Shown here: positions 4,372 to 42,906 of the stretch, piece by piece
How the letters are laid out: each line of letters opens with the position of its first letter
Position numbering within the stretch: the stretch's first letter is position 1
Assembly: GCA_041665385.1 (NCBI GenBank)
Contig: JBAYIX010000002.1
Location: 50,932-114,931 of the forward strand
DNA: 64,000 nucleotides
DNA from: Minisyncoccota bacterium
GTDB lineage: Bacteria; Patescibacteriota; Minisyncoccia; Phycocordibacterales; PALSA-1337
Reading direction: 5' to 3'
Translations under genes and position numbers: made by a program
Notes under the pieces: model-generated
Seen by the model: only the letters and a program-made list of their open reading frames with translations
Databases searched by the model: none
What the model was told of the DNA's origin: nothing

Positions 4372-4406
4372 CGTTACATATTATCACACGGCGGGAGACG
4401 CAATAG

Positions 4407-5360
4407 CTATTTTACCAGGCGATAAAAAACATTCGAGCCGAAACGAAGGTCGATCGTTTCAAAATTCAAATATTCATTTTTGGTACGAGCATCCGTGAGC
4501 ATGTGCGACCAGAAGGAAACGAAGTTGCTGATCTGGTTTTCGAAACCATTTACTTCATTGAAATAAACAACGATTGTTTCGACGGGTGTCGAAGTGCCTA
4601 CGACGGACTTGTCTTTGCCCGGATTTTCTATGAAGAGTTCGTATTCTCCCCCACCTTTCACGAGTATACCCAGTGGGTTCACACGAGAGAGACGCATAGA
4701 TTCATAAAATCCCTGCAGAGCTCGGAATGTACTCGAAGCAAATGCTTCCCTGCCGATGGCGTCGTTTTGCGGAGCGTCATTCTCTATGTCGAGGAGGTAG
4801 TAGCTGTTGTACATATTTACTGGAAAGACGCCAGCCTTCATATATATGACACCACTCGCATCGGTAAAAAAGCAGTTTTCCGATTGGCCGCCTGTTTCAG
4901 CATTTTCAGCAATACTGAAATTCGGCAATCCCGCACAGACCAGAGCAGCGGGAGACTTTTCGTGAACCTGTATGTCGAGACTGCCGAGACCGGACCGTCG
5001 TATGCTGAGTGATTCTATTCTAGGTGATGTCTCTTTTATAGCTTCGCTAATATCCGCCTTGGAAATAAGTAGAAAGTTCGACTTGGAAAACAGGCCGAGA
5101 TAGTCGCCCTCAAGTGCACGGAGAGCAGCCGCCTCGAGTGCAGGAAGAATGTCCGGGTCTGCGCCGGAAATACTGACATGCCCGATATTGACCCGATCGA
5201 GGTACGTAAAGCTGGAAATAGCATAGGTCCACGAACCAGCGGAAATGAGGACGAGAACTAAGGCAAAAAAGTTTCTCCGGCGTTTGTTTTCCGCAAACTT
5301 TGACGACTGACGCGCCAATGTTGTGATATGCACATTATGAACATCAAATCTTTTTTTCAT
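4407..5360 (-). CDS. ftsQ: FtsQ/DivIB-type cell division protein (POTRA domain)
   Basis: Basic N-terminus, one TM segment, then a POTRA-like region (IESLSIRRSGLGSLDIQVHEKSPAALV). Confidence 0.5.
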   Translation of the reverse strand: MKKRFDVHNVHITTLARQSSKFAENKRRRNFFALVLVLISAGSWTYAISSFTYLDRVNIGHVSISGADPDILPALEAAALRALEGDYLGLFSKSNFLLISKADISEAIKETSPRIESLSIRRSGLGSLDIQVHEKSPAALVCAGLPNFSIAENAETGGQSENCFFTDASGVIYMKAGVFPVNMYNSYYLLDIENDAPQNDAIGREAFASSTFRALQGFYESMRLSRVNPLGILVKGGGEYELFIENPGKDKSVVGTSTPVETIVVYFNEVNGFENQISNFVSFWSHMLTDARTKNEYLNFETIDLRFGSNVFYRLVK

Positions 5361-5385: not shown

Positions 5386-6648
5386 TTATTTTATAACATC
5401 CTTGCCCATGTACTTTGTGAGGACTTCGGGGATCTTGATACTGCCGTCGGGTTGCTGGAAATTTTCGATGAGAGAGACGAGGATACGAGGTGTAGGAATA
5501 GCTGTAGCGTTCAATGAATGAGCGTAGCGCATCACACCCTCGGCATCACGATAGCGGATATTGAGACGTCTGCATTGAAAATCATGGAAATACGATGCGG
5601 AACCGATCTCCCTGTATTTACCTTCCTTGGGAACCCAAAGTTCGATATCATACTTCTTTACTTGGCCGAGACCTAGGTCTGCGCCACAATTCACAACTGT
5701 GTGATACGGTATTCCGAGCGCTTCTATGAACTCTTCGGTATTCCTATTCACCTCCTCGTGATACTTTACGGACGCTTCGTGATTCGCTTCACAGAGTATC
5801 ACTTGCTCAAACTTATAAAATTCATTGACCCGTATGAGACCGTGAACGTCCTTACCATGGGCGCCCGCTTCCCTGCGAAAACACGGGGAAAATCCCAAAT
5901 ATTTCTTTGGAAGCTCGGCCGACGATAGAACTTCGTCACCATGAAGCCCCATTATGGGAACTTCGGCTGTACCTACTAGGTAATCTCCGTCTTGAGTTTT
6001 GTAAAGATCCTCTTCACCTTGAGGCAAGTAACCTGAGCCGTAGAGATTTATAGCCCGAACTATGACGGGAGGAATGATAGGCACAAAGCCTTTCTTTTGG
6101 AAGAATTCCAAGGCAAAATTCCAAATAGCAAAACACAGATTCACCGCATCACCGGTAAGAAAATATCCGCGAAAGCCATGGATCTTGGCTCCGCGCTCTA
6201 GATCGAGCATGCCGAGCTTGGTCATGATCTCGATATGGTTTTTGGGTTCAAATGGAAAACTGGTCTTTTCTCCCCAGACTTTGACTTCGAGATTGTCAGC
6301 ATCAGAATTACCATCAGGTACGGACATATCTGGAATATTTGGCACTGCGAGCATGAGAGCTTGCCACTCTTTCATTGTTCCCTTGAGTTCCTCCTCGTCT
6401 TTTTCCATTTCGCCCTTTACTATTTTCATTTCCCCTATGAGTTTTGTTCTTTCTTCTGGATCTTTTGCTCCACTGATCTTTTCGCTGGCTATGTTTTGTG
6501 CCGCGCGTTTCTTTTCCACAGCGAGCAAGAGTAATTTGCGCTTGTCATCTGATACTAGGAGCTGGTCTACGTCAAATTTTAGATGTTTTTTCTTTGCGGC
6601 TGACGCGATGAGATCCTTGTTTTCTCTGATGAATTTTATGTCTAACAT
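5386..6648 (-). CDS. serS: Seryl-tRNA synthetase
   Basis: N-terminal coiled coil and class II core motifs (FRRE, GLGQ..). Confidence 0.9.
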   Translation of the reverse strand: MLDIKFIRENKDLIASAAKKKHLKFDVDQLLVSDDKRKLLLLAVEKKRAAQNIASEKISGAKDPEERTKLIGEMKIVKGEMEKDEEELKGTMKEWQALMLAVPNIPDMSVPDGNSDADNLEVKVWGEKTSFPFEPKNHIEIMTKLGMLDLERGAKIHGFRGYFLTGDAVNLCFAIWNFALEFFQKKGFVPIIPPVIVRAINLYGSGYLPQGEEDLYKTQDGDYLVGTAEVPIMGLHGDEVLSSAELPKKYLGFSPCFRREAGAHGKDVHGLIRVNEFYKFEQVILCEANHEASVKYHEEVNRNTEEFIEALGIPYHTVVNCGADLGLGQVKKYDIELWVPKEGKYREIGSASYFHDFQCRRLNIRYRDAEGVMRYAHSLNATAIPTPRILVSLIENFQQPDGSIKIPEVLTKYMGKDVIK

Positions 6649-14576: not shown

Positions 14577-16202
14577 CTATGCTTTTTCGAATGGTTCCAT
14601 CTCAACTATGAATGTCGAGCCCTTGCCTTCTCCGCGCGACTCTGCACGGATAGTGCCATGATGAGCCTCTATCATCTCTTTTGCCACATACAGTCCGAGA
14701 CCGGTACCTTTTATATTCACCTTGTTCGCATTATTTGCCCGACTGAACTTCTGGAAAAGTCTGGGCAATATTTCCGGAGCGATGCCGATACCAGTGTCGC
14801 TGATCTTGAATATGAATTTGTGATTCTTGCTATCATAGGAAAGTTCGGCATCTACCCTGCCGCTCGGTGTGTATTTCATGGAGTTGTCTATGAGGTTTAC
14901 GATGACTTGCTTGAGCTTGTCTCGGTCTGCAGTGGTCCGATAGTCACTGTGAGATTCCGAAGCATGGAATGAAAATGCAAGTTTTGTTTTCTCGATATTG
15001 GGTTTGATTTCTCCTATAACATCCTCGATGAGCTGTTTCAGGTCGATGGTTTCGAAAGCATACTTCATGGTACCGAGCTCTATCCTGCTCACATTCAGAT
15101 AGTCATCGACGATACTGACCAGAGTCTTCGAGGATTCAAATATTCGGCTCACGCCAGTCTTGGCTTCTTCGGATATCGCACCCATGTCACCTTCGAGTAG
15201 GAGCGAGGCATAACCCTTCATGGCGGTGAGCGGTGCACGGAGCTGGTGGTTCGCAAAGGAGACGAATTCGGATTTCTGACGATCCAGGTCGGTGAGACGC
15301 GTGTTGGCTTTTTGGAGATCTGCTGCAAGTTTTTCAATGCGTTCGCGTTGATTCACTTCTTGATAAAGCATTTTAAGCAACAAAATAGTGAACCATACTG
15401 TAAAAGCAAGTAGCAGTGAATTAATAAATATATTATAAAAAGTTTGTGCTAAGAGTATATTTATCACAAATACAATATTTATCGCCCCGGCAAAAAGCTG
15501 AATTGCAACATTTTTAATATTAAATAGTTTGTAATGAAGAGCCGCGTAACTAAATATAAATGGACTAGCCATAAGCATAAACGTCCCTATCAAATCATAG
15601 GGTTGTGGAATTGAATATCCTAACATAAGAGGAAAATTTATTGATCCACCAATGAAACCTAATATTGATCCAATAAAAAGATAGCCCATTCTGTAACGGA
15701 TCTCTCCCCTTGAGTGAATAAGGCTTCTAAGTAAAAAAATTAAACCCGTAAGAATGAAACCTATGTAACCAATAATTATAAAGTATAAGTAGAGCGGACC
15801 AGCAATAGGCCAATACGGAAAGACCGATATACTTCTTACCCCCGAAACATAATAATCTGTAAAACTGAACGATGCAAAAAAGAACGTAATTAAGTAACAA
15901 ATTCTTATAAAATACTTAGCCTTGATTTCATAATCAATAGCGGTAAATACCCAGTGTAAAAATAGTACGGGTATAAATGTTGCCCCTAGATTTAATAGTC
16001 TGGCAAAAAATAATGCCGTCTCGGGATCCGAATTAGTTTTCAATAGACCGAACCATGAATAACTCCAGACAGCAAAAGCGAATGCTAAGAGAGCGAATCT
16101 ACGTGCTTGTACATTTTCTTGATTTTTCCAAATAGCAAAACATCCGAAACCAGTGAAAAAGAAAGCTGTTATTATTACTGATGATTGATAGATGTCAAGC
16201 AT
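14577..16202 (-). CDS. Sensor histidine kinase with N-terminal 7TM sensor domain (HisKA + HATPase_c)
   Basis: H-box HQLRAPLTAM, plus N, G1 and G2 boxes (DNSMKYT, DTGIGI, GTGLGL). The N-terminal half is polytopic and strongly A+T-rich. Confidence 0.85.
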   Translation of the reverse strand: MLDIYQSSVIITAFFFTGFGCFAIWKNQENVQARRFALLAFAFAVWSYSWFGLLKTNSDPETALFFARLLNLGATFIPVLFLHWVFTAIDYEIKAKYFIRICYLITFFFASFSFTDYYVSGVRSISVFPYWPIAGPLYLYFIIIGYIGFILTGLIFLLRSLIHSRGEIRYRMGYLFIGSILGFIGGSINFPLMLGYSIPQPYDLIGTFMLMASPFIFSYAALHYKLFNIKNVAIQLFAGAINIVFVINILLAQTFYNIFINSLLLAFTVWFTILLLKMLYQEVNQRERIEKLAADLQKANTRLTDLDRQKSEFVSFANHQLRAPLTAMKGYASLLLEGDMGAISEEAKTGVSRIFESSKTLVSIVDDYLNVSRIELGTMKYAFETIDLKQLIEDVIGEIKPNIEKTKLAFSFHASESHSDYRTTADRDKLKQVIVNLIDNSMKYTPSGRVDAELSYDSKNHKFIFKISDTGIGIAPEILPRLFQKFSRANNANKVNIKGTGLGLYVAKEMIEAHHGTIRAESRGEGKGSTFIVEMEPFEKA

Positions 16203-18252: not shown

Positions 18253-19926
18253 ATGACTATGGATATAAGCATTCCTACCATATTGATATGGATCACGGCA
18301 ATAATAATTATTAGTCTGGATTTGGTTATTGTAATAGGTAGCCGTAATTTATCATCGCGAGTTTTTGCTGCATTAAGTTTTACAACTGCAATTTGGGTAA
18401 TCTCATCAGGCTTTTTCATATCAACACTATCATCTAATGTTTCAAATATTTTAATCCGCTTTCAGTACGTGCTTGGAATATCAATAGCCTTAGGCTTTTA
18501 TTTATTTTCATTAATTTATCCTAATGACAAAAAGATAACTAAAAAACACATATATGTACCCATATTAATCATCATCATTTTTGCTTACTTATTTTTATTT
18601 TCAAATCACTTAATTATTTATACATTTTACATTGGAGGAATAAATAAGTGGGGATGGAATTTTGGGAATTTTCAGTGGCTATTTGAATTTGCTTTCTGTG
18701 GACTATGGACGTTTGCTCTTCTAAATCTTTATCGTACATACAAGAACTCCTCTGGACCACTACGCATAAATCTTAAAAATATGTTTTGGGCACTATTTTT
18801 AGGCATAATTCCGCCAACCATCGTAAATATTTTATTACCGGCAATTGGTTACTTTCGACTTAACTGGTTCGGTCCAGTAACAAGCGCAATCTGGATACTC
18901 ATCATTGCTTATTCGATTATTCGCTACCGCCAGATGAGCGTACGGATCGTAGTAACAGAGGCATTGGCTGTTGCTATGACGGCGATATTTTTCATAAACA
19001 TTTTCATTGATTTTGCACCGAACATTTACATTCGCATTGTAACCTTTACCGCTTTTATTATACTCGCATATTTCCTGATACGCGGTGCCCTCCTCGAATC
19101 CCGCCAAAAGGAACAACTCGCAGACTTGAATCAGAACCTAGAAGCAAAAGTTGCCGAGCAGACGGCGGAGATCCGTCGCGCGTATGAAGTGGAAAAGAAG
19201 GCTCGAGTCGATCTGGAAAAACTGAATGACAGCAAAAACCAGTTCATCATGATCACCCAGCATCATTTGCGGACGCCGGTGACGAGCATCAGCTGGCAAC
19301 TGGAGTCCATGATATCGGGCGAATACGGCACACTCTCACCGGAGCTCCACACCGCCGTTCTCGAGACCGAAGAATCCACCAAGCGTCTGACGCACATCAT
19401 CGATGATTTTCTAGACATAGCCGCGATGAAAGCTGGCAGCAATATTCTGAACTTTACCGAAAGGAGCCTCCTGTCCGCTATGCAAGAAGTACTGCACGAC
19501 CTCCGCACAGACATTGCGAGGAAGCACATAAGTGTCACCTATCCCGAAACAAATGATGACTGGCCGAAGCTCCATGTCGACTACGAGAAGATGCGCGACA
19601 TCCTCCTCATCGTCATCGAAAATGCCGTGCGCTACAACTATGAGGCTGGCAGTATCACGATCACGACTCGTACACATTCGCACAAGTTTGAAATCTTTAT
19701 AAAAAACACCGGCATAGGCATCACTCCCGAAGAATCGGAAAAGATAGGCTCGACCCTGTTCTACCGCGGAATGGAAGCCAGGAAACAAAATGCTATCGGC
19801 ATGGGAGTCGGTCTGTCTGTGAGCAAAGCCATCATTCGTGGACATCAAGGCAGTTTTGATATCGAGTCGAAAGGCCCGGGCATGGGTGCGACTGTGACCA
19901 TCACTCTACCACTAAAGCAAAACTAA
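18253..19926 (+). CDS. Sensor histidine kinase 2 with N-terminal 7TM sensor domain
   Basis: H-box HHLRTPVTSI and N, G1, G2 boxes. The N-terminal ~280 codons are A+T-rich and polytopic; the C-terminal kinase half is G+C-normal. Confidence 0.85.
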   Translation: MTMDISIPTILIWITAIIIISLDLVIVIGSRNLSSRVFAALSFTTAIWVISSGFFISTLSSNVSNILIRFQYVLGISIALGFYLFSLIYPNDKKITKKHIYVPILIIIIFAYLFLFSNHLIIYTFYIGGINKWGWNFGNFQWLFEFAFCGLWTFALLNLYRTYKNSSGPLRINLKNMFWALFLGIIPPTIVNILLPAIGYFRLNWFGPVTSAIWILIIAYSIIRYRQMSVRIVVTEALAVAMTAIFFINIFIDFAPNIYIRIVTFTAFIILAYFLIRGALLESRQKEQLADLNQNLEAKVAEQTAEIRRAYEVEKKARVDLEKLNDSKNQFIMITQHHLRTPVTSISWQLESMISGEYGTLSPELHTAVLETEESTKRLTHIIDDFLDIAAMKAGSNILNFTERSLLSAMQEVLHDLRTDIARKHISVTYPETNDDWPKLHVDYEKMRDILLIVIENAVRYNYEAGSITITTRTHSHKFEIFIKNTGIGITPEESEKIGSTLFYRGMEARKQNAIGMGVGLSVSKAIIRGHQGSFDIESKGPGMGATVTITLPLKQN

Positions 19927-21302: not shown

Positions 21303-21989
21303 CTAATCTTGACCCGGACGCTTGATAACTAGCTCAGTCACAGGCTCAGAAGAGGCGAGATTTGCGATGATCTTTTCTGCCGTTTCATCGGGATCGAGGA
21401 AGAGATCGTACTCCGGCGGTCTTTCTTCATTGAACAGGTCTGTTTTCATACCCCCAGGATATACACCTATAACAGTAATACCGAAATCTTTTACCTCTTC
21501 TCGGAGCGAGTCGGTAAAGCCTCGAGCGGCATACTTGCTCGAAGCATACACAGCAGAGTTTGGCCGGCCGGCTAGAGCGGCGGTGGAAATAATATTCACG
21601 ATCGTTCCCTTCCCCGCCTTTTTCATATATAGCAAGACGGCTCGTGCACCGTACATAGTGCCAAAGAGATTGACCTCCATGAGCTGATGCGCCCGCACCA
21701 TGTCCGCCTTTTCTATAGGCATGCGGGGGTGCCAGACGCCGGCATTGTTGATCCAGATATCTATGCCACCTGTCAGACTAGCCGCCTCTCGTGCCAGATT
21801 TATGAGATCTTGCTCTTTGGTAACATCTGCGACTATTGCGGTCGCGCCGATCTCGAGCGCGGTCTTTTCGAGCTCTGCTTTGTCGCGCGATGATACAACC
21901 ACTCTGGCTCCTTGTTCCGCAACAAGCCTCGCCATCGATCTTCCCAACCCCCGGCTAGAGCCGGTAATAACTACCACTTTATTTTTCAT
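21303..21989 (-). CDS. Short-chain dehydrogenase/reductase (SDR) family oxidoreductase
   Basis: TGSSRGLG cofactor motif, NNAG, and the YxxxK catalytic pair. Confidence 0.85.
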   Translation of the reverse strand: MKNKVVVITGSSRGLGRSMARLVAEQGARVVVSSRDKAELEKTALEIGATAIVADVTKEQDLINLAREAASLTGGIDIWINNAGVWHPRMPIEKADMVRAHQLMEVNLFGTMYGARAVLLYMKKAGKGTIVNIISTAALAGRPNSAVYASSKYAARGFTDSLREEVKDFGITVIGVYPGGMKTDLFNEERPPEYDLFLDPDETAEKIIANLASSEPVTELVIKRPGQD

Positions 21990-22013: not shown

Positions 22014-23315
22014 CTACAAAGTTATTTTTGGCAGGTCTACTTCCTTTATATTGCCGGCAACAGTCATGTACCAGGCATCATCCTTGAAATACTTGTTTGC
22101 AACACGGATGATGTCTTCGTTGGTGACCTCGGAATGACTTCTTACGCGATCAACGACTGTCTTTCCCTTTTGAGACAATATTCTTTCCTGATAGAAGTGT
22201 CCATCTACCCAGCTTTCTGCTGTTTCATACATGACTCGAAGTCGCTTTGTTGCAGTCTCCTTCTTTGCTTTTATTAACTCTTCGGGTATGCCGTCACGTT
22301 TGACGTCCTTCAATATGGAACAAAGAGTAAGAAGTGTTTCGGATAGATTTGCGAGCGAAGTCGATGCGTGTATCATGAAATGTCCTGAATCATTTGACGG
22401 AGAGCTAGCTGCATCGACACTATATATCAGTCCTTTTTCATATCGAAGCTTTTTGTGCAATAGACCGGCACGCCCACCACCTAGTGTATCAGCCAACATT
22501 CTTAATACGGTCGAATCTTTATCTGATATTATTGTTGTTCGAAAACCCATCCAAAAATTAACATGCTTTACATTTTCGTCGTAGAAGATCTGAAGAGGCC
22601 TTGTCCGAATAATTGGCGCCAGAACTTCTGTGAGTTCATGTGCGATACCTAGTGCCACAAAATGTATATTTTTTTCGATGGAAGCGGCCATATTTTCTAT
22701 TGATATACCTCCAGCGGAAACCATACTGCACCTATTCGATACGACATACTTGTTATAGAAATCGAGGGTATCCTGACGCGTGATAGACATCAGAGATTCC
22801 TTTGTACCTAATGTATCCAGCTCATAAGCGGTGCCTTGATACATCAGACAATAGAATCCGCGATTTGCTTTTTTTTCGGCCGTAGAGAGCCTATCCCCCA
22901 TTTCCTGCAATATAGATCCTCGTTCGGATTCTATTATAGAGTCAGTGAACAAAGACTCGGTCAAGAGCTCACCGAGAAATGATGTCAAAACATCAATATC
23001 CGCAGGCTCAGATATTTCAGAGTTCACGCACAATACCTCGTCATTTGTACTTGCCGACACCAGGCCTCCCTTGCTCTCTATATACATTGCAAGCTTGTCC
23101 TTCTGTGGAAACTTCTTTGTCCCTGCAAATATGAGGTGTTCAACAAAGTGTGCTATTCCCTCCTTGCCTGGCGGGTCGAAACGACTGCCAGAATCGAAAA
23201 CTAGTTTCAAAGTAACCGGAGCATTTGGCTTCTCGAAATGTACTAGACGGACTCCATTTGATAGCACTTTTTCCTTTCGTACAACACCGAGCTCCGCAAG
23301 AGTGGGTATTTGCAT
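22014..23315 (-). CDS. M16-family zinc peptidase (insulinase/pitrilysin-like)
   Basis: HFVEHLIF inverted zincin HxxEH motif. 433 aa with both M16 halves. Confidence 0.8.
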   Translation of the reverse strand: MQIPTLAELGVVRKEKVLSNGVRLVHFEKPNAPVTLKLVFDSGSRFDPPGKEGIAHFVEHLIFAGTKKFPQKDKLAMYIESKGGLVSASTNDEVLCVNSEISEPADIDVLTSFLGELLTESLFTDSIIESERGSILQEMGDRLSTAEKKANRGFYCLMYQGTAYELDTLGTKESLMSITRQDTLDFYNKYVVSNRCSMVSAGGISIENMAASIEKNIHFVALGIAHELTEVLAPIIRTRPLQIFYDENVKHVNFWMGFRTTIISDKDSTVLRMLADTLGGGRAGLLHKKLRYEKGLIYSVDAASSPSNDSGHFMIHASTSLANLSETLLTLCSILKDVKRDGIPEELIKAKKETATKRLRVMYETAESWVDGHFYQERILSQKGKTVVDRVRSHSEVTNEDIIRVANKYFKDDAWYMTVAGNIKEVDLPKITL

Positions 23316-23359
23316 TTTATTATATGTAAAATGAATAATTTATACGATCATATCACACA

Positions 23360-23397
23360 AAAGTGAATAAAATGGAGCTGGCATTACTACCAGCTCC
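23360..23397 (-). terminator. Intrinsic terminator immediately after small peptide gene P1
   Basis: GGAGCTGG..CCAGCTCC stem followed by a U-rich run on the minus strand. Confidence 0.5.
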
Positions 23398-23408
23398 ATA
23401 ACGGTCAT

Positions 23409-23501
23409 TCAGTACTTCTCGCAAGAGCCACCCGTGTGAGGGCAGGTCTCTTCGGTTTCCTCTTCGCAAAAGAGGACTTGGATGGATTTGGTATTCTTCA
23501 T
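23409..23501 (-). CDS. Small acidic Cys/Thr/Glu-rich peptide P1 (30 aa: MKNTKSIQVLFCEEETEETCPHTGGSCEKY). Possible longer form from ATG 23546.
   Basis: Not in the supplied ORF track. N-terminus is paralogous to P2/P3 (M-[KN]-x-[ST]-K..). A terminator follows directly. Confidence 0.4.
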   Translation of the reverse strand: MKNTKSIQVLFCEEETEETCPHTGGSCEKY

Positions 23502-23591
23502 AGTAAATAGAATGAAGATTGACTTTTTGATGAACCACACATACATGTGTCGGCTCTCCCGCATAAGAGCGGTCACCTGCTCGCATGAAGA

Positions 23592-23696
23592 TCAGGGACT
23601 ACTATCGTGCCCGTAATCATCATGGTCCGGACCATCATCATCGGCCTGGAACAAGATATGTTTTTGCATAGGAATGAACTTTTGCAGTTTGGACAT
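23592..23696 (-). CDS. Small acidic peptide P2 (34 aa: MSKLQKFIPMQKHILFQADDDGPDHDDYGHDSSP)
   Basis: Not in the ORF track. SD-like GAGGGGG sits 5-6 nt before the ATG. Preceded by a start-stop mini-ORF (AGGAAACC-ATG-TAG at 23730-23735). Confidence 0.45.
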   Translation of the reverse strand: MSKLQKFIPMQKHILFQADDDGPDHDDYGHDSSP

Positions 23697-23754
23697 AGCG
23701 ACCCCCTCATACATGAAGCGGATCTCCCACTACATGGTTTCCTAAAGATGGATG

Positions 23755-23847
23755 TCAGTCACCGTCAGTAGGCTCGTCTGTCGGAATATCAGGAGTACAG
23801 TTGCCGTCATCCTGCTCAATAACAGACATCAGTTTGGACTTGTTCAT
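23755..23847 (-). CDS. Small acidic peptide P3 (30 aa: MNKSKLMSVIEQDDGNCTPDIPTDEPTDGD)
   Basis: Internal Met of the track ORF 23755-23946. Thr/Asp/Glu-rich C-terminus resembling graspetide core peptides. Confidence 0.4.
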   Translation of the reverse strand: MNKSKLMSVIEQDDGNCTPDIPTDEPTDGD

Positions 23848-24037
23848 ACTTTTCGTAGTGTTTGTAATGTTCATGACCGGAATAAGTCCGGCCTCCATCA
23901 CGCTGGTCCGGCGGTATGCACGGTCCAGTGTCGTCGCTAGGTCCACAAGCGCTCGTTCCCGAAAAGGTTTTGCGAATACCTTTTCTTATGAGCATATCAT
24001 CGTCTTGTCCGTCCCCATCACAGGAACCTTCTGGCAT
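23816..24037 (-). CDS. Hypothetical 73-aa acidic Cys-containing protein (alternative frame overlapping P3)
   Basis: AAAGGAA SD before the ATG. MPEGSCDGDGQDDD.. The frame choice versus P3 is unresolved. Confidence 0.25.
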   Translation of the reverse strand: MPEGSCDGDGQDDDMLIRKGIRKTFSGTSACGPSDDTGPCIPPDQRDGGRTYSGHEHYKHYEKYEQVQTDVCY

Positions 24038-24171
24038 ATTTTCCTTTCTCTACCTATTTTGTTTGCCTACTATAGGTAGTGCTATCTATGGGTATCTTAT
24101 CAGAGGGGGTTTTATTGTCAAGCATAGATGATTCAGTTGTGGATAACTGGCAATTGTGAGATTCTAGTGAT

Positions 24172-24687
24172 ATGGAGAAGTCTTATAATACTATTCGCGA
24201 ACTATTGCGAACCGATCAAGAAGATATTTGTCTGTTCAAGGCTGGCAAAATCTCTGCTGATGAACACACGGATCGAAATCTATTCACTTCAAATAGCTTT
24301 ATGGACCAGATGCGAAAAGACGGATTTTGCTACAAGAATTCAGCTTCACAGGATATCTACAAAGCTTTTGTTACCCTATCGTTGCATGTCAGCCTTAGTA
24401 ATATGAAATGGATATTTGACACGTATATTGAGAAAACCACACCCTATGAGGTTGCTCCTGAAGACAAGGCGTTATTTATTGATAAAATTCTGATACTTTC
24501 AGGAAAACCTCAAATATACGGTACACAATATAAAATTGATTCGAACAAAAAGATATCATTTCTTCCTATTGAGGATGAAGTCAATCTAGATAAGAGAAGA
24601 AGTGAAGCTGGTCTTAATCATATAGAGACGTACATGAAAATAATTGGGGATCATGAGTCACTAGCTTCGAAGCACTTTATACTATAA
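24172..24687 (+). CDS. Hypothetical protein, family A (A1). Paralogue of 41109-41621.
   Basis: Shared blocks DQEDICLFKAGKISADE / GTQYKIDSNKKISFLPIEDEVNLDKRRSEAGL with A2. A+T-rich. Confidence 0.6.
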   Translation: MEKSYNTIRELLRTDQEDICLFKAGKISADEHTDRNLFTSNSFMDQMRKDGFCYKNSASQDIYKAFVTLSLHVSLSNMKWIFDTYIEKTTPYEVAPEDKALFIDKILILSGKPQIYGTQYKIDSNKKISFLPIEDEVNLDKRRSEAGLNHIETYMKIIGDHESLASKHFIL

Positions 24688-25626: not shown

Positions 25627-26931
25627 TTACGGCGTCAGGCGATTAGGCCCGCGATAGAGGTAGGTCACTTCCCGGACATTTTTTCGGTCTAGGAGAACCA
25701 TGAGAAGCCTCGTAAGTCCCACACCGAATCCTCCGTGCGACGGACAACCGTAGCGAAAGAAGTTGATGTAGTGCGCGAGAGGAGCAAGAGCCAATCCCTT
25801 TTCTCGCGCCTGCTGTTCAAGCGTTTCGACACGATGTTCACGCTGTGCACCAGTCGTCACTTCAAGCCCCTTCCATAAAAGGTCGAAGCTCTTGGTGATG
25901 CTGGGATTGCCGTCATGACGCATGTGGTAGAACGGTCGCACATCGATCGGGTAGTCGATCACAAAAACAAACTCGTGACCAAATTCCTTCTTGATGTATT
26001 CCGCCAAACCCCTTTCGCCGGGCGGATCAAGGTCAGTGATTTGCTCCATGGTATGGCCCTGCTTTGCGAGAATCTCTCGCGCATTTGCCAAGGTAACCCT
26101 TGGAAATGGGAGTTGAGGAATCACTACGTCAACTCCGAAAACGTCCTTGATAGCCTTACCGTATTTCTCTGACACTCGTTTGACCACGTGATGCAACCAA
26201 GTCTCCTCGATATGCATCAGATCTTCATGGGAATCAACCCACGATATCTCCATGTCAACCGAGGTAATCTCGGTGTCATGTCGTGATGTGAACGATGGAT
26301 TGGCACGGAATACAGGCGCAATCTCAAAGATCCGATCAAACCCTGCCGCCATCGCCATTTGCTTGTAGAACTGAGGCGATTGGGCCAGAGTCGCTTTTTG
26401 CCCGAAGTACTCAAGCTGAAACAGTTCTGCACCGGATTCGCTCGCCGTTGCCATAAGCTTCGGCGAATGGACCTCGATGAAGCCGTTGTCAGCCCAGAAC
26501 TCCCTCATCGCCTGCTCCACGGTCGTTTGGACCTGGAATATCAGGAGATTTTCGGGTTGCCTCAAGCTAAGCATCCGCCAGTCCATCTGCAGATCGAGCG
26601 ATGACTCCGGCGTAATCGGTAATGGCGCAATGGCGATGCTTGAAACATCAACCGACTCCGCCACAATCTCAACTCCACCAAGCTTCACGCCCTTGTTTTC
26701 GACCACGCGGCCTACAACAGTGACTGCTGATTCAGCAGTAAGCGAAGATATGGTCTTTTTCAACCCATCCTCGTCACCACCTTTTTCATGACAAATCTGA
26801 ACCTGTCCCGTCTGATCCCTGAGGATCACGAACTGCATTTTCTTTTGGTCGCGAATGACTTGTGAAAAGCCCGCAACTTTTACTCGTTGGCCGATTAAAG
26901 TCGGTATGTATTGAGTCAATGTGCGATTCAT
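25627..26931 (-). CDS. aspS: Aspartyl-tRNA synthetase, archaeal/eukaryal-type class IIb
   Basis: N-terminal OB fold and class II motifs (FRANPS.., QSPQFYKQ, GGFGVGLTRL). The Asp versus Asn assignment is tentative. Confidence 0.7.
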   Translation of the reverse strand: MNRTLTQYIPTLIGQRVKVAGFSQVIRDQKKMQFVILRDQTGQVQICHEKGGDEDGLKKTISSLTAESAVTVVGRVVENKGVKLGGVEIVAESVDVSSIAIAPLPITPESSLDLQMDWRMLSLRQPENLLIFQVQTTVEQAMREFWADNGFIEVHSPKLMATASESGAELFQLEYFGQKATLAQSPQFYKQMAMAAGFDRIFEIAPVFRANPSFTSRHDTEITSVDMEISWVDSHEDLMHIEETWLHHVVKRVSEKYGKAIKDVFGVDVVIPQLPFPRVTLANAREILAKQGHTMEQITDLDPPGERGLAEYIKKEFGHEFVFVIDYPIDVRPFYHMRHDGNPSITKSFDLLWKGLEVTTGAQREHRVETLEQQAREKGLALAPLAHYINFFRYGCPSHGGFGVGLTRLLMVLLDRKNVREVTYLYRGPNRLTP

Positions 26932-31184: not shown

Positions 31185-32528
31185 CTATTCTGACAATAGG
31201 TTATCGATCCTATTAATATCCCTCGGGAAAAGAGTGGCTTCCTTGATATTTTCTAGACCAAGAAGCTTTGCCGTAATGCGCTCCAACCCGAGTCCCAGAC
31301 CTCCGTGTGGAGGCATGCCATATTTGAAAGCTTGAAGATAATATTTGAACTTTTCAGGATCAAGCTTCTTTTCCTTCATGGAACTAACAAGGTCATCGTA
31401 GTTATGGATGCGTTGCGCGCCAGTAGTGATTTCTACTCCACGGAAGAGCAAGTCAAAACCTTTAGTATATGTTGGATCTTTTTCATCTCTATAAGTGTAG
31501 AATGGGCGCTTGGCTGTCGGAAAATTAGTTACGAAAATAAAGTCGGAATTAAAATTCTTCTCGGCATATTTACAGAGCCATCTTTCATGTTCAGGTTCAA
31601 GATCCGGCTCATTTGTGCAATCTTTACAGGTATCTTTTGTAATAAGTTCCTGAGCTTCGCGTAACGTCAATTTTGGAATTTCTTTCGGAACAGCTGGTAT
31701 AGTGGCACCGAGCAAGGCAAAATCGTCAACACAGGAAACACGAAGAACATTTTCAAGATATTGCAAAAATTGATTTTCGGCATACATGACATCATGATGG
31801 TCTTTAATATAACCCATTTCCATATCTAAACTGGTATATTCATTGAGGTGACGCGTTGTACTATGTTTCTCCGCACGATATACATTACCAACAGAAAAAA
31901 CACGTTCAAATACGCCGACCATAATCTGTTTATATAATTGGGGACTTTGAGCCAGATGTGCGACATGTTTGAAATATGTAACATCAAAAGAGTTCGCCCC
32001 GCCCTCGGCATCATCACCAATTAATTTCGGCGCTTGAAATTCTGTAAAACCCTCTTTTGTAAAGAAGTCTCTGAAAGCTTTGGCAATAGCTGCTTGAACC
32101 TTGAAAACAGCCGCATGTTTTTGACTTCGAAGAGTGAGCGGGAGGTAATCGAGATATGTATCGATATTAATTTCAGAATCTTTTTCAAACGGAAGTTCCT
32201 TGGCTATTCCAATAACCTTGATACGTTTAATCTCAAGTTCGATATCCCCGTTCATTTTTCCGACTTGAATGTTCTTTTGGGGACGTTTGTTTACGATGCC
32301 AATAATGTCTACGACCCATTCAGAACGTATTTCCTTCGAAGCCTCAAGGGCTTCTGAATTATTAGGAAGTACCACCCCTTGTATATTGCCTGTCCGATCT
32401 CGAAACTCGAAAAATACCATTTTACCCTGATCACGACGTACATCAACATATCCTGAAATGCTGATTTCTTTACCGACAAATCCTTTTACATCTTTTATGT
32501 ATGTTCTTTGCATTGTACTTGCGACCAA
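31185..32528 (-). CDS. asnS: Asparaginyl-tRNA synthetase (class IIb), paralogue of the upstream AspRS-like gene
   Basis: RAEKHSTTRHLNEYTSLDMEM resembles the AsnRS motif 2 region. QSPQLYKQ and GGLGLGLERI class II motifs. Confidence 0.6.
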   Translation of the reverse strand: MVASTMQRTYIKDVKGFVGKEISISGYVDVRRDQGKMVFFEFRDRTGNIQGVVLPNNSEALEASKEIRSEWVVDIIGIVNKRPQKNIQVGKMNGDIELEIKRIKVIGIAKELPFEKDSEINIDTYLDYLPLTLRSQKHAAVFKVQAAIAKAFRDFFTKEGFTEFQAPKLIGDDAEGGANSFDVTYFKHVAHLAQSPQLYKQIMVGVFERVFSVGNVYRAEKHSTTRHLNEYTSLDMEMGYIKDHHDVMYAENQFLQYLENVLRVSCVDDFALLGATIPAVPKEIPKLTLREAQELITKDTCKDCTNEPDLEPEHERWLCKYAEKNFNSDFIFVTNFPTAKRPFYTYRDEKDPTYTKGFDLLFRGVEITTGAQRIHNYDDLVSSMKEKKLDPEKFKYYLQAFKYGMPPHGGLGLGLERITAKLLGLENIKEATLFPRDINRIDNLLSE

Positions 32529-41108: not shown

Positions 41109-41621
41109 TTATTTCTTACCCAAACTCTGCTCCACGATTTTCTTATATTCCTCAAAACTTTCCATGTCAAATTCCGCACGCCTTTTTTCTAATTCCTCTG
41201 GTTTCTCAATATCAATAAATTTTAGAACACCGTCTTTATCAATATTGTATTGCGTTCCAAACAGTTGAGGTAACCTTTGAATTATTCTCGATTTATCAAT
41301 CATATAAGCAATGTCTCTTTTTTGTATTGAAACAATATCAGCATCTTGAAGATATTTTATCGATTGATTTAAAAATTCAATATCTCCAGAATGTAACACC
41401 ACTAGCACGGCGGCTTTGTATGCCTTTTGTGAAGTTAAACTGATTGTTGGAAATCCAATTTCATTAATGATCTCATTTACAGTTTTAACATTCATCTTAT
41501 TTATTTCAGCAAGATCAGATGTGGCTATTTTCCCCACCTTAAAATCTTTTATTGCTTGTTGATCAGCTTCCAAAATTGCTTCCAGAATAAGAGTATATTT
41601 CTTAATTAAAAATGTATTCAT
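41109..41621 (-). CDS. Hypothetical protein, family A (A2). Paralogue of 24172-24687.
   Basis: Shares DQQAIKDFKVGKIATSD and GTQYNIDKDGVLKFIDIEKPEELEKRRAEF blocks with A1. A+T-rich. Confidence 0.6.
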   Translation of the reverse strand: MNTFLIKKYTLILEAILEADQQAIKDFKVGKIATSDLAEINKMNVKTVNEIINEIGFPTISLTSQKAYKAAVLVVLHSGDIEFLNQSIKYLQDADIVSIQKRDIAYMIDKSRIIQRLPQLFGTQYNIDKDGVLKFIDIEKPEELEKRRAEFDMESFEEYKKIVEQSLGKK

Positions 41622-41700
41622 AGCAATACTATACTATATACTATATCGAAAAGAAAAAAGGCACTCTTCGAAAAGGGTGCCCTGGTGCCGTGCCCGATGT

Positions 41701-41853
41701 TCAGTTGGTATCGCTGTCGCCGGAGCCCTGGATAAACGTGTCGTTTTCGCAAGCGCATCCCTGCTGAGGCGGATCCATGACTCTGACCGGGCAAGGCTCG
41801 GCGTTGAGAAACGTGATTGGCGTTTCATCTCGCCGCTGAGTTTTTGTGTTCAT
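41701..41853 (-). CDS. Candidate graspetide (ATP-grasp-modified RiPP) precursor peptide, 50 aa
   Basis: Not in the ORF track (a different frame from track ORF 41634-41828). MNTKTQRRDETPITFLNAEPCPVRVMDPPQQGCACENDTFIQGSGDSDTN lies 60 nt downstream of the ATP-grasp gene on the same strand, with a Thr/Ser + Asp/Glu-rich C-terminus. Confidence 0.45.
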   Translation of the reverse strand: MNTKTQRRDETPITFLNAEPCPVRVMDPPQQGCACENDTFIQGSGDSDTN

Positions 41854-41913
41854 AATTTGTCCATATTCTGGCTAGAACCCTAGCCTTTTGTTCAATCGCA
41901 TCCTACTACACTT

Positions 41914-42906
41914 TTAGCAAGAAAGCAAATTCGCGAGAGTCAATGATATTGGATGGCCAACCAGTTGTTCCGACGGCATCCACTGTCCTTGCGGGTTAAT
42001 CTCAAAAAACAAATAGCCGTCTTTCCTTGAAAAACCCATATCGATGCAACCGAACTTAAGTTTGAGAGAACTGACCAATTGGACACACTTACTCTCAAGA
42101 TCTTTCGGTAGATTATGCATAACGTATTTCCTTTTCGCATCATGATGTCTCCAGTCAAGGTTCGCTCCTTCTAAGTTATTCTCGATGATAATTTCAGAAG
42201 CAAACACCTTATCGCCGATAACGGTGATTCGGATATCCGAATCCTTGATTACCGCCTCTTGCAGGATAAATGGGCAGTTGGATACCTGCCCGATATGCTC
42301 CAACAGAAGCGGGATATCAACAATTTTCGTGTAGATCGCCTTGTTCTTCCGTGATTTATCATCAGGATCATTCGTCAATCGGACATAACTACTGCCGACC
42401 GCTTTCATAATGAGTGGAGCACCGGAATGCTTAACTACAAAGGCTTTAACCTTTTCAGGATCATTACTGATGCAGGTTTCCGGCACTTTGAATCCGATTT
42501 GCTTCGCCAGGGCAAGTTGAAGTGGCTTACGATTAGCGATCCTCGTCGCTTCAGGTTCTGAGACCCACAACACGTCCTTGAGAAATGCGAGTAAACAGCT
42601 AAGGGCTATCTCACTCTCATTTTGAATGTATTTCTGGAGCAATGTCTTCCTAGTGTTTTTCACTGGACCTTGCGGCCGTCTCCACCAAATACTCTTTATG
42701 GAATCCTCATCAAGCCGAAAGCCGTCTGACAAGGCCAATGAGGCACTGACTATTTTTTCAAATAGTATAGTGCCCGACATCGTCGTTGGAAATTCACCAA
42801 AGTTGATTAGGTGAGCCGTTTGTCCGATTTCCGCAAGCCTTTTCATCAAAAAAAGCGCGGACTGGTCTTTTTCATGTGAGGCAATGATTACAGTTTTTGT
42901 TTTCAT
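41914..42906 (-). CDS. ATP-grasp ribosomal peptide maturase (MvdD/MdnC-like graspetide ligase)
   Basis: 330 aa. N-terminal pre-ATP-grasp domain (KTVIIASHEKD..), WWRRPQ, RITVIGDKVFA, DWRHHD and FFEINPQGQW blocks typical of microviridin-type ATP-grasp ligases. Confidence 0.65.
   Translation of the reverse strand: MKTKTVIIASHEKDQSALFLMKRLAEIGQTAHLINFGEFPTTMSGTILFEKIVSASLALSDGFRLDEDSIKSIWWRRPQGPVKNTRKTLLQKYIQNESEIALSCLLAFLKDVLWVSEPEATRIANRKPLQLALAKQIGFKVPETCISNDPEKVKAFVVKHSGAPLIMKAVGSSYVRLTNDPDDKSRKNKAIYTKIVDIPLLLEHIGQVSNCPFILQEAVIKDSDIRITVIGDKVFASEIIIENNLEGANLDWRHHDAKRKYVMHNLPKDLESKCVQLVSSLKLKFGCIDMGFSRKDGYLFFEINPQGQWMPSEQLVGHPISLTLANLLSC

Follow-up and report, generated by a model that had tools for sequence, protein, structure and literature searches.

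We analyzed a 64-kb stretch of the genome of a Minisyncoccota bacterium (contig JBAYIX010000002.1, positions 50,932 to 114,931; hereafter the window), in which a gene for an M16 peptidase is separated from a gene for a DUF6624 protein by a region that holds an array of very small open reading frames (ORFs). The first-pass annotation had placed three tandem genes for small acidic peptides, P1 to P3, in this region and had seen no long ORF there; all three peptides were found, on the minus strand, and the interval from the M16 start (23315) to the DUF6624 gene (24172) is indeed free of long ORFs. Small acidic ORFs of this kind recur beside related M16 genes in other Patescibacteria and are under purifying selection, and it is very likely that they are genes functionally tied to the M16 peptidase. 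The features of the locus are listed below in the 5' to 3' direction of the array, which lies entirely on the minus strand; ORF coordinates include the stop codon.

24172-24687, plus strand: DUF6624 protein gene, divergent from the array and 135 nt from the P0 start.
24094-24121, minus strand: promoter-like site (TTGACA, 16 nt, TAAGAT, with TG), 10 of 12 consensus matches; a candidate only.
23816-24037, minus strand: P0, 73 aa (MPEGSCDGDGQDDDMLIRKG...), a possible fourth family member.
23755-23847, minus strand: P3, 30 aa, MNKSKLMSVIEQDDGNCTPDIPTDEPTDGD, an ORF with an acidic tail; an alternative start at 23898 gives 47 aa.
23730-23735, minus strand: ATG-TAG start-stop, with AGGAAACC just before it; present in the sequence, at a frequency expected by chance.
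23592-23696, minus strand: P2, 34 aa, MSKLQKFIPMQKHILFQADDDGPDHDDYGHDSSP, the best-supported member; a longer form starts at 23714.
23409-23501, minus strand: P1, 30 aa, MKNTKSIQVLFCEEETEETCPHTGGSCEKY, an ORF with an acidic tail.
23372-23399, minus strand: hairpin resembling an intrinsic terminator, with a 12-bp stem, 6 G-C pairs, a 4-nt loop and a TTTTATT tail.
22014-23315, minus strand: M16B zinc peptidase, 433 aa (Pfam Peptidase_M16 and M16_C).
21303-21989, minus strand: generic short-chain dehydrogenase/reductase (SDR), 24 nt 3' of M16.

P0 was called by the ENA gene caller, which skipped P1 to P3, and it accounts for the end coordinate (24037) of the element as first described. AAAGGA precedes its ATG, an internal Met at 23995 would give a 59-aa form, and its 3' end overlaps the start of P3 in a different frame. 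P1 has longer in-frame starts at 23546, 23564 and 23576; the form starting at 23546 is 45 aa long (MYVWFIKKSIFILFT...), and GGGAGAG precedes its start. The hairpin at 23399-23372 begins 9 nt past the P1 stop and 56 nt ahead of the M16 start, and with its 12-bp stem and T-rich tail it confirms the terminator that had been reported after P1. The spacer between P1 and M16 folds at -30.1 kcal/mol. P0 to P3 all stop at TGA, compared with 8 of 51 long ORFs, which may be chance; the peptide genes of the relatives described below use all three stop codons.

Promoter-like sites were not enriched in the array region (2 seen versus 2.3 expected in shuffled sequences). A start-stop element had been noted between P3 and P2, but 0.55 such elements are expected by chance per 830 nt, and 0.12 if a Shine-Dalgarno (SD)-like 4-mer is also demanded. 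GAGGGGG was confirmed 5 nt before the P2 ATG. The argument built on it fared less well, because an SD-like 4-mer at positions -20 to -4 was found in 6 of 49 long ORFs versus 15% of random 17-mers; the genome is nearly free of SD sequences, and the SD-like sites of the array are at chance level.

To define acidic peptides we used ATG ORFs of 18-90 aa on both strands and called a tail acidic if it had at least 25% Asp/Glu and at most 5% Lys/Arg. Only three of the 496 small ORFs in the window have such a tail, and these are P1, P2 and P3, which are adjacent and co-directional. The in-frame codon-usage log-odds per codon were 0.43 for P3, 0.27 for P2, 0.19 for P1 and 0.09 for P0, compared with 0.29 ± 0.09 and a minimum of 0.11 for the long genes; P0 falls below that minimum and is therefore marginal. 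Recoding of UGA (code 4 or 25), which would fuse the ORFs, was rejected because code 11 leaves the long ORFs intact and the stops are those of the standard code, with TAA, TAG and TGA ending 26, 17 and 8 of 51 long ORFs. Within the limits of the comparison a decayed longer gene was rejected as well, since blastx of 23316-24171 against 356 proteins of related loci returned only the self match.

Curated collections gave no family for the region or its peptides. Rfam matched no family in the region and only tRNAs elsewhere in the window, and an sR1 hit in the region was a chance match below threshold (14 bits versus 45). Nine peptides searched at E ≤ 1 had no match in NCBIfam and, in Pfam, only a spurious match of P0 to Protamine_P2 (E = 0.065, far below the cut-off). 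A concatenation of P0, P3, P2 and P1 matched nothing at E ≤ 10 among 5.8 billion proteins. The N-termini of P1 to P3 had been described as paralogous, but this relationship could not be demonstrated, as P0 to P3 gave no significant phmmer matches to each other.

Of the four ORFs, P2 has the best support. A 70-aa peptide encoded upstream of M16 in the related locus L076 shares with P2 an exact 11-aa motif, GPDHDDYGHDS, although the M16 of L076 is only 31% identical to that of the window. P2 ends in ...DDDGPDHDDYGHDSSP and the L076 peptide in ...DDSGPDHDDYGHDSDAD. Seven of the 11 shared residues are written with different codons, all synonymous, including AGT versus TCC for Ser. When the peptides of 21 relatives were compared by phmmer with 2344 six-frame segments of the window, the sole significant match was that of L076 to P2 (E = 1.1e-4). 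The N-terminus of P2, MSKLQKFIPM, also resembles MYKLHKFLMA of the group A peptides (see below), a similarity too short to test. We are highly confident that P2 is a real conserved gene, moderately so for P1 and P3, and have little confidence in P0.

The pairing of acidic peptide and M16 peptidase recurs in other genomes. An alignment-based scan of genome contigs succeeded where a single M16 query had given no loci, and 88 related loci were collected in all; 59 of these were unique, 56 had at least 300 nt upstream, and the flanks of their M16 genes were scanned. The relatives come from metagenome-assembled genomes labeled as Dojkabacteria, WWE3, Saccharibacteria, Shapirobacteria, Paceibacterota and other Patescibacteria, and their M16 proteins are mostly 30-38% (at best 44%) identical to that of the window. 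An ATG ORF of 18-80 aa with an acidic tail, on the same strand and ending no more than 500 nt upstream of M16, was present in 18 of the 56 loci. At the background rate of 0.0089 per 500 nt of strand, about 0.5 loci would be expected, which makes the observed number some 36 times higher, and 2 matches were found on the opposite strand of these upstream regions. Looser criteria added L005 and L011, whose peptides are similar in composition to P0, and in L025, L038 and L067 an equivalent peptide is encoded just downstream of M16. The free-standing peptides span 21-74 aa; examples are MYKLHKFLMACDPGDGDTGSDMGNGPSSDGSSAGDSDSSYDSGSYEG; MSYDPDEGWDETDADADGIGSDGMDDD...; MNDPGDDDWDDGTYEEQGGYDDP; MLRLKIYCCGSDDGPPEGTVIGGDGEPIPPGDTDPCPSGG; and MKRRFKKIFLKCRKKLSMDDGDDLDDKGGDYWEGEIDSLDDR....

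The peptide sequences of the relatives are under purifying selection. In five groups of alignable peptides the synonymous sites are nearly saturated but the protein sequence is retained, and indels come in multiples of three. The ratio of nonsynonymous to synonymous divergence (pN/pS) was 0.11-0.18 at pS of 0.5-0.66 among L031, L035 and L040; most of the remaining pairs gave 0.2-0.5, and the noisiest ones of group A reached 0.76. The small ORF is preceded by a strong SD (e.g. AAAGGAGG) in most relatives, in contrast to the SD-poor window, and in nearly all of them a stable hairpin lies between its stop and the M16 start. Tandem copies occur in L005 and L006, two in each, with the same SD context. 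In L005 an ORF start reading MDFSSVKKFF(K/R)KE(E/D)KKVEEVIEYE is found on both sides of M16 (4406-4489 and 6381-6539), as if the segment had been duplicated.

When ORFs of at least 90 aa from the 59 loci were clustered, M16 was the only gene shared with the peptide. Other neighbors are housekeeping genes (ThrRS, IF3, YchF, PlsC-type acyltransferases and cyclophilin), and no recurrent maturase or transporter was found near the peptide-M16 pair in the 59 loci. The isoelectric point of M16 did not differ clearly between loci with and without a peptide (mean 7.5 versus 6.7, with a wide spread). HisKA_7TM kinases lie within a few kb of M16 in 7 of the 59 loci; the window has two, at 14577-16202 (minus strand) and 18253-19926 (plus strand), and between them lie genes for a transglutaminase-like protein and for CoaB and CoaC as a split pair (Flavoprotein, DFP).

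The peptidase itself has the HxxEH zinc site, the distal Glu, the C-terminal R/Y pair and the two-domain clamshell-half fold of the M16B family. The residues concerned (H56-x-x-E59-H60, E131, E138 and R291-Y292) are invariant in 19 members of the clade. Its AlphaFold2 model (pLDDT 93.4) is closest in fold to the yeast mitochondrial processing peptidase subunit beta-MPP (1hr6, TM 0.88) and to bacterial M16B enzymes, among them BH2405 of B. halodurans (3hdi, TM 0.85-0.88) and also 5euf and 3eoq; in the first two, HxxEH, the distal Glu and the R/Y pair are likewise intact. No signal peptide is apparent on direct reading of its sequence. Judged from its sequence and the model, the enzyme is a catalytically intact M16B peptidase that looks active and is probably cytoplasmic. 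The SDR gene is probably co-transcribed with M16, and the two are adjacent in 1 of the 59 loci, that of the window. An M16-SDR pair like YmfH/YmfI of Bacillus, which modifies elongation factor P (EF-P), was raised by the best NCBIfam match, YfmF_fam, and was rejected: the match, at 82 bits, fell short of the 285-bit cut-off, the SDR is a generic one, and the M16-SDR adjacency is unique to the window locus.

The reading that we favor, though tentatively, is that these ORFs encode real small peptides which are substrates or ligands of the adjacent M16B chamber, and that this loosely conserved, hitherto undescribed class of peptide is coupled to one M16B clade across the Patescibacteria. M16B peptidases are dimeric clamshells that enclose and cut only short unfolded peptides, and so the adjacent peptides of 21-74 aa would be the most plausible substrates or ligands, as their conserved adjacency also suggests. 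Many of the peptides are bipartite, with a net charge of 0 to +5 in the first ten residues and of -3 to -20 in the remainder. P0 to P3 each start with a short basic or hydrophobic stretch, which gives way to a strongly acidic tail with Tyr, His or Cys. The acidic parts are rich in Asp, Glu, Gly and Pro, carry DxDxDG-like motifs and contain His, Cys, Tyr and Trp, and the peptides are probably disordered. Lipoprotein signal peptides, considered for the members with a Cys at the junction (P1 and the peptides of L040, L041 and L005), were rejected, since the hydrophobic stretch spans no more than about 4-8 residues and close relatives have Arg or His in place of the Cys.

If the favored reading holds, the layout suggests that the peptide genes form a transcription unit of their own that ends at the hairpin, and M16 and the SDR would be expressed by read-through or from their own promoter. 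The enzymes of the beta-MPP/M16B type cut short unfolded peptides with basic amphipathic N-terminal segments. By analogy with the presequences cut by beta-MPP, cleavage might fall where the basic or hydrophobic N-terminal segment changes sharply to the acidic one. MPP substrates are N-terminal extensions of large proteins, whereas here the putative substrate is a whole small peptide with an acidic body. Cleavage would free an unmodified acidic peptide, for which a role in binding divalent metals or in signaling can be imagined. The comparative data do not require a dedicated modification enzyme. The more sweeping version, a phylum-wide two-gene system in which a cytoplasmic M16B peptidase works with at least one tiny acidic peptide bearing DxDxDG-like, His, Tyr or Trp motifs, with no classical maturase and with the peptide either unmodified or modified by an unknown route, strikes us as doubtful.

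Several observations weigh against the favored reading. The peptides of L013, L051, L064, L024 and L044 have no basic or hydrophobic N-terminal segment, and a role in leader removal therefore cannot be general. Only about 40% of the loci have the small ORF, and the closest M16 relatives (44% identical; L002, L008 and L009) lack it. What unites the class is for the most part composition and position. P0, P1 and P3 have no relatives detectable by protein database search or phmmer, and they are counted among its members solely for their position, strand, composition and codon usage. Neither the peptides nor M16 carry export signals, and no transporter is linked to them, so that an extracellular role is unsupported. 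Translation of the peptides and their cleavage or binding by M16 are predictions from the sequences, and the layout of ORF, hairpin and gene would suit a regulatory leader equally well.

That last possibility is the chief rival, namely that the ORFs are cis-acting leaders whose acidic, Pro-containing nascent chain controls the hairpin and read-through into M16, the peptide itself having no role; we consider it unlikely. Stretches rich in Asp, Glu and Pro impede translation, by stalling or by intrinsic destabilization of the ribosome, and some such motifs depend on EF-P; the peptides do contain IPPD, PPG, PPE and DPG. Attenuators and arrest peptides such as trpL, MgtL, TnaC and SecM likewise combine a small ORF, a hairpin and a gene, with acidic, Pro-containing chains, and the order of small ORF, strong hairpin and M16 is kept in the window and in about 20 loci. 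The absence of a transporter, maturase or export signal also suits a leader. In the group A loci, a spacer of roughly 130 nt with two hairpins is nearly invariant in DNA sequence and more conserved than the peptide coding sequence. By inspection, the 3' side of hairpin 1 together with the linker (CUCCUYCCGC) could form pairs with hairpin 2 at its 5' arm (GCGGGAGGA), as happens in attenuators; only one base pair of the spacer was found to covary.

The group A spacers lie at L026 940-1110, L031 1434-1605, L035 2843-3000, L036 846-1052, L037 2799-2994, L040 2829-2994 and L041 815-976. Their hairpins are GGAGUGUUUGGGAG...CUCCCAAGCACUCC and GGGCGGGAGGAAC...A-rich loop...UUCCUCCCGC. The spacer has no match in Rfam and may be a novel regulatory RNA.

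Other features of the loci argue against attenuators. The peptide gene lies 3' of M16 in three loci (L025, L038 and L067). Attenuators are not built from three or four divergent copies in tandem, an arrangement seen in the window and in L005. The distance from the conserved core to the stop codon is not fixed, with variable C-terminal tails in groups B and C, and the whole acidic core is conserved in amino-acid sequence. The amino acids are kept across very distant lineages despite saturated synonymous sites. The hairpin of the window, finally, is a plain terminator, and no alternative pairing was seen in the spacer.

The first-pass annotation had likened P1 to P3 to precursors of RiPPs (peptides made on the ribosome and modified after translation), in particular graspetides, with M16 as leader peptidase. 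A full version of this proposal, in which P0 to P3 are modified by the distal ATP-grasp enzyme of the window, by DUF6624 and/or by the SDR before M16 removes the leader, is in our judgment quite unlikely. Known precursors processed by M16B enzymes include PqqA with PqqF/PqqL and subtilosin SboA with AlbE/AlbF. Lanthipeptides, too, have M16B leader proteases, which are unclustered (PMC8960859). The likeness to such systems lies in a tiny, sometimes multicopy gene beside an M16B gene, a bipartite peptide, and a hairpin before the enzyme gene. Our loci differ in having no conserved modifying enzyme (radical SAM, LanM), a housekeeping context, many members without a leader, and no similarity to known precursor families in NCBIfam or Pfam.

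Graspetide clusters of the candidate phyla radiation (CPR) share with the array the host group, D/E/T/S-rich cores and tandem divergent precursors (Makarova et al. 2022, PMC8939145). Metallopeptidases and SDRs are among the families associated with them (PMC8939145), and DUF6624, which abuts the array, is reported to be enriched in several groups of graspetide clusters and to represent, possibly, a biosynthetic enzyme of a new kind (Carter et al. 2026, PMC13097080). The DUF6624 family is probably, by our inference, the unnamed "cluster 23" family of all CPR graspetide loci (PMC8939145). The graspetide cluster of the window lies 18 kb from the array. Its ATP-grasp enzyme (41914-42906) is of the graspetide type, with 198 bits on TIGR04187 and the MvdD pre-ATP-grasp domain, and it is accompanied by the following genes.

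41701-41853, minus strand: graspetide precursor ORF, 50 aa, MNTKTQRRDETPITFLNAEPCPVRVMDPPQQGCACENDTFIQGSGDSDTN, unannotated, between the ATP-grasp and DUF6624 genes and followed by a terminator.
41109-41621, minus strand: DUF6624 protein of the graspetide cluster.

This precursor is kept in L096 (8717-8869), with 10 synonymous and 4 nonsynonymous codon changes, and in the more distant L097 (11043-11183) it reads MKNEEALPITFLHSEPC...HDTMIQRTGDSDTI. DUF6624 follows the ATP-grasp gene in all three contigs. Because the distal ATP-grasp enzyme has its own adjacent, conserved precursor, the graspetide reading of P1 to P3 is weak. P0, P1 and P2 contain neither the leader motif of that precursor, PITFL, nor another graspetide leader motif (PFFARFL-like, or Phhx(1,2)h in CPR); PVMNI, in the long form of P3, agrees with the very loose motif Phhx(1,2)h of CPR graspetide leaders (PMC8939145). 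As for cross-link donors and acceptors, the cores of P1 and P3 offer Thr with Asp/Glu, together with Cys, and P2 offers Ser and Lys. The conserved acidic part of the L013 peptide contains no Ser, Thr or Lys, and that of L051 one Thr and no Ser or Lys; members of the L013 type therefore cannot form graspetide cross-links.

In 58 of the 59 loci, no maturase was found within 3 kb on either side of M16. The array locus itself has no ATP-grasp gene, and no radical-SAM, YcaO or lanthipeptide enzyme is present among the window ORFs. An ATP-grasp gene near M16 was seen only in L047, where it and a DUF6624 gene stand right beside M16, convergent with it. DUF6624 adjoins M16 in three loci: the window, L047 (2620-4034) and L052 (1565-2086). 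The two DUF6624 paralogues of the window, one beside the array and one beside the ATP-grasp gene, are 32% identical. The paralogue beside the array, with those of L047 and L052, keeps a RiPP-like link open, and some route of modification may exist.

Between the window (41109-42906) and the related Paceibacterota contig L096 (7664-9455) the ATP-grasp proteins are 87% identical, compared with 53% for the neighboring syntenic Mur ligase, and the cluster is thus far better conserved than housekeeping genes, which points either to recent transfer or to unusually strong constraint.

Another reading is that these are real small acidic proteins, metal-binding or partners of some other protein, whose link with M16 is merely inherited gene order. 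The DxDxDG-like and His-rich motifs suggest metal binding, and the order acyltransferase, peptide, M16 ... HisKA_7TM kinase is common to the window, L005, L044 and L076, so that inherited synteny may account for part of the adjacency. We nevertheless judge this reading improbable, since the pairing survives among wholly different neighbors (ThrRS and IF3 for group A, cyclophilin for L013, and others) and where the peptide lies on the other side of M16.

That these reading frames are open merely by chance, in a spacer that codes for nothing, is barely credible, despite their shortness, the lack of relatives of P0, P1 and P3, the weak codon score of P0 and the omission of P1 to P3 by gene callers: given the recurrence in 18 of 56 loci, the purifying selection, the L076 match and the clustering of the window's only three acidic tails, it is untenable for P2, improbable for the whole array and possible for P0 alone.

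Elsewhere in the window, the segment 12226-14475 has a G+C content of 29-35% and no ORF of at least 120 aa except one of 130 aa without a Pfam match. Two paralogous class II tRNA synthetases of the Asp/Asn/Lys type are encoded 4 kb apart on the minus strand (25627-26931 and 31185-32528), with a gene for a 692-aa SHMT-domain protein between them.

A literature search on M16 and M16B peptidases, Patescibacteria, Saccharibacteria, CPR, precursor peptides and small proteins found no description of this pairing, and no curated family in Pfam, NCBIfam or Rfam covers the peptides. What is new here is the association of a peptide gene with a processing-type peptidase, without a maturase and in a housekeeping context. 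It stands apart from the graspetide system that this genome also carries and whose unannotated precursor is described above.

Patescibacteria account for much of bacterial diversity; almost all are uncultured, many of their genes have no assigned function, and gene callers commonly overlook small ORFs in them, as happened here with P1 to P3. The present data offer a concrete, testable pair of microprotein and enzyme that spans lineages whose M16 proteins are only about 30% identical, and the peptides are candidates for natural substrates or ligands of bacterial M16B peptidases, a family with few known physiological substrates. If the more sweeping version, a phylum-wide two-gene system, is true, the peptide could be a processed metal-binding or signaling molecule, or else a built-in regulator of the peptidase chamber, and in either case it would be a new class of bacterial microprotein with a role in the reduced, host-dependent physiology of the Patescibacteria.

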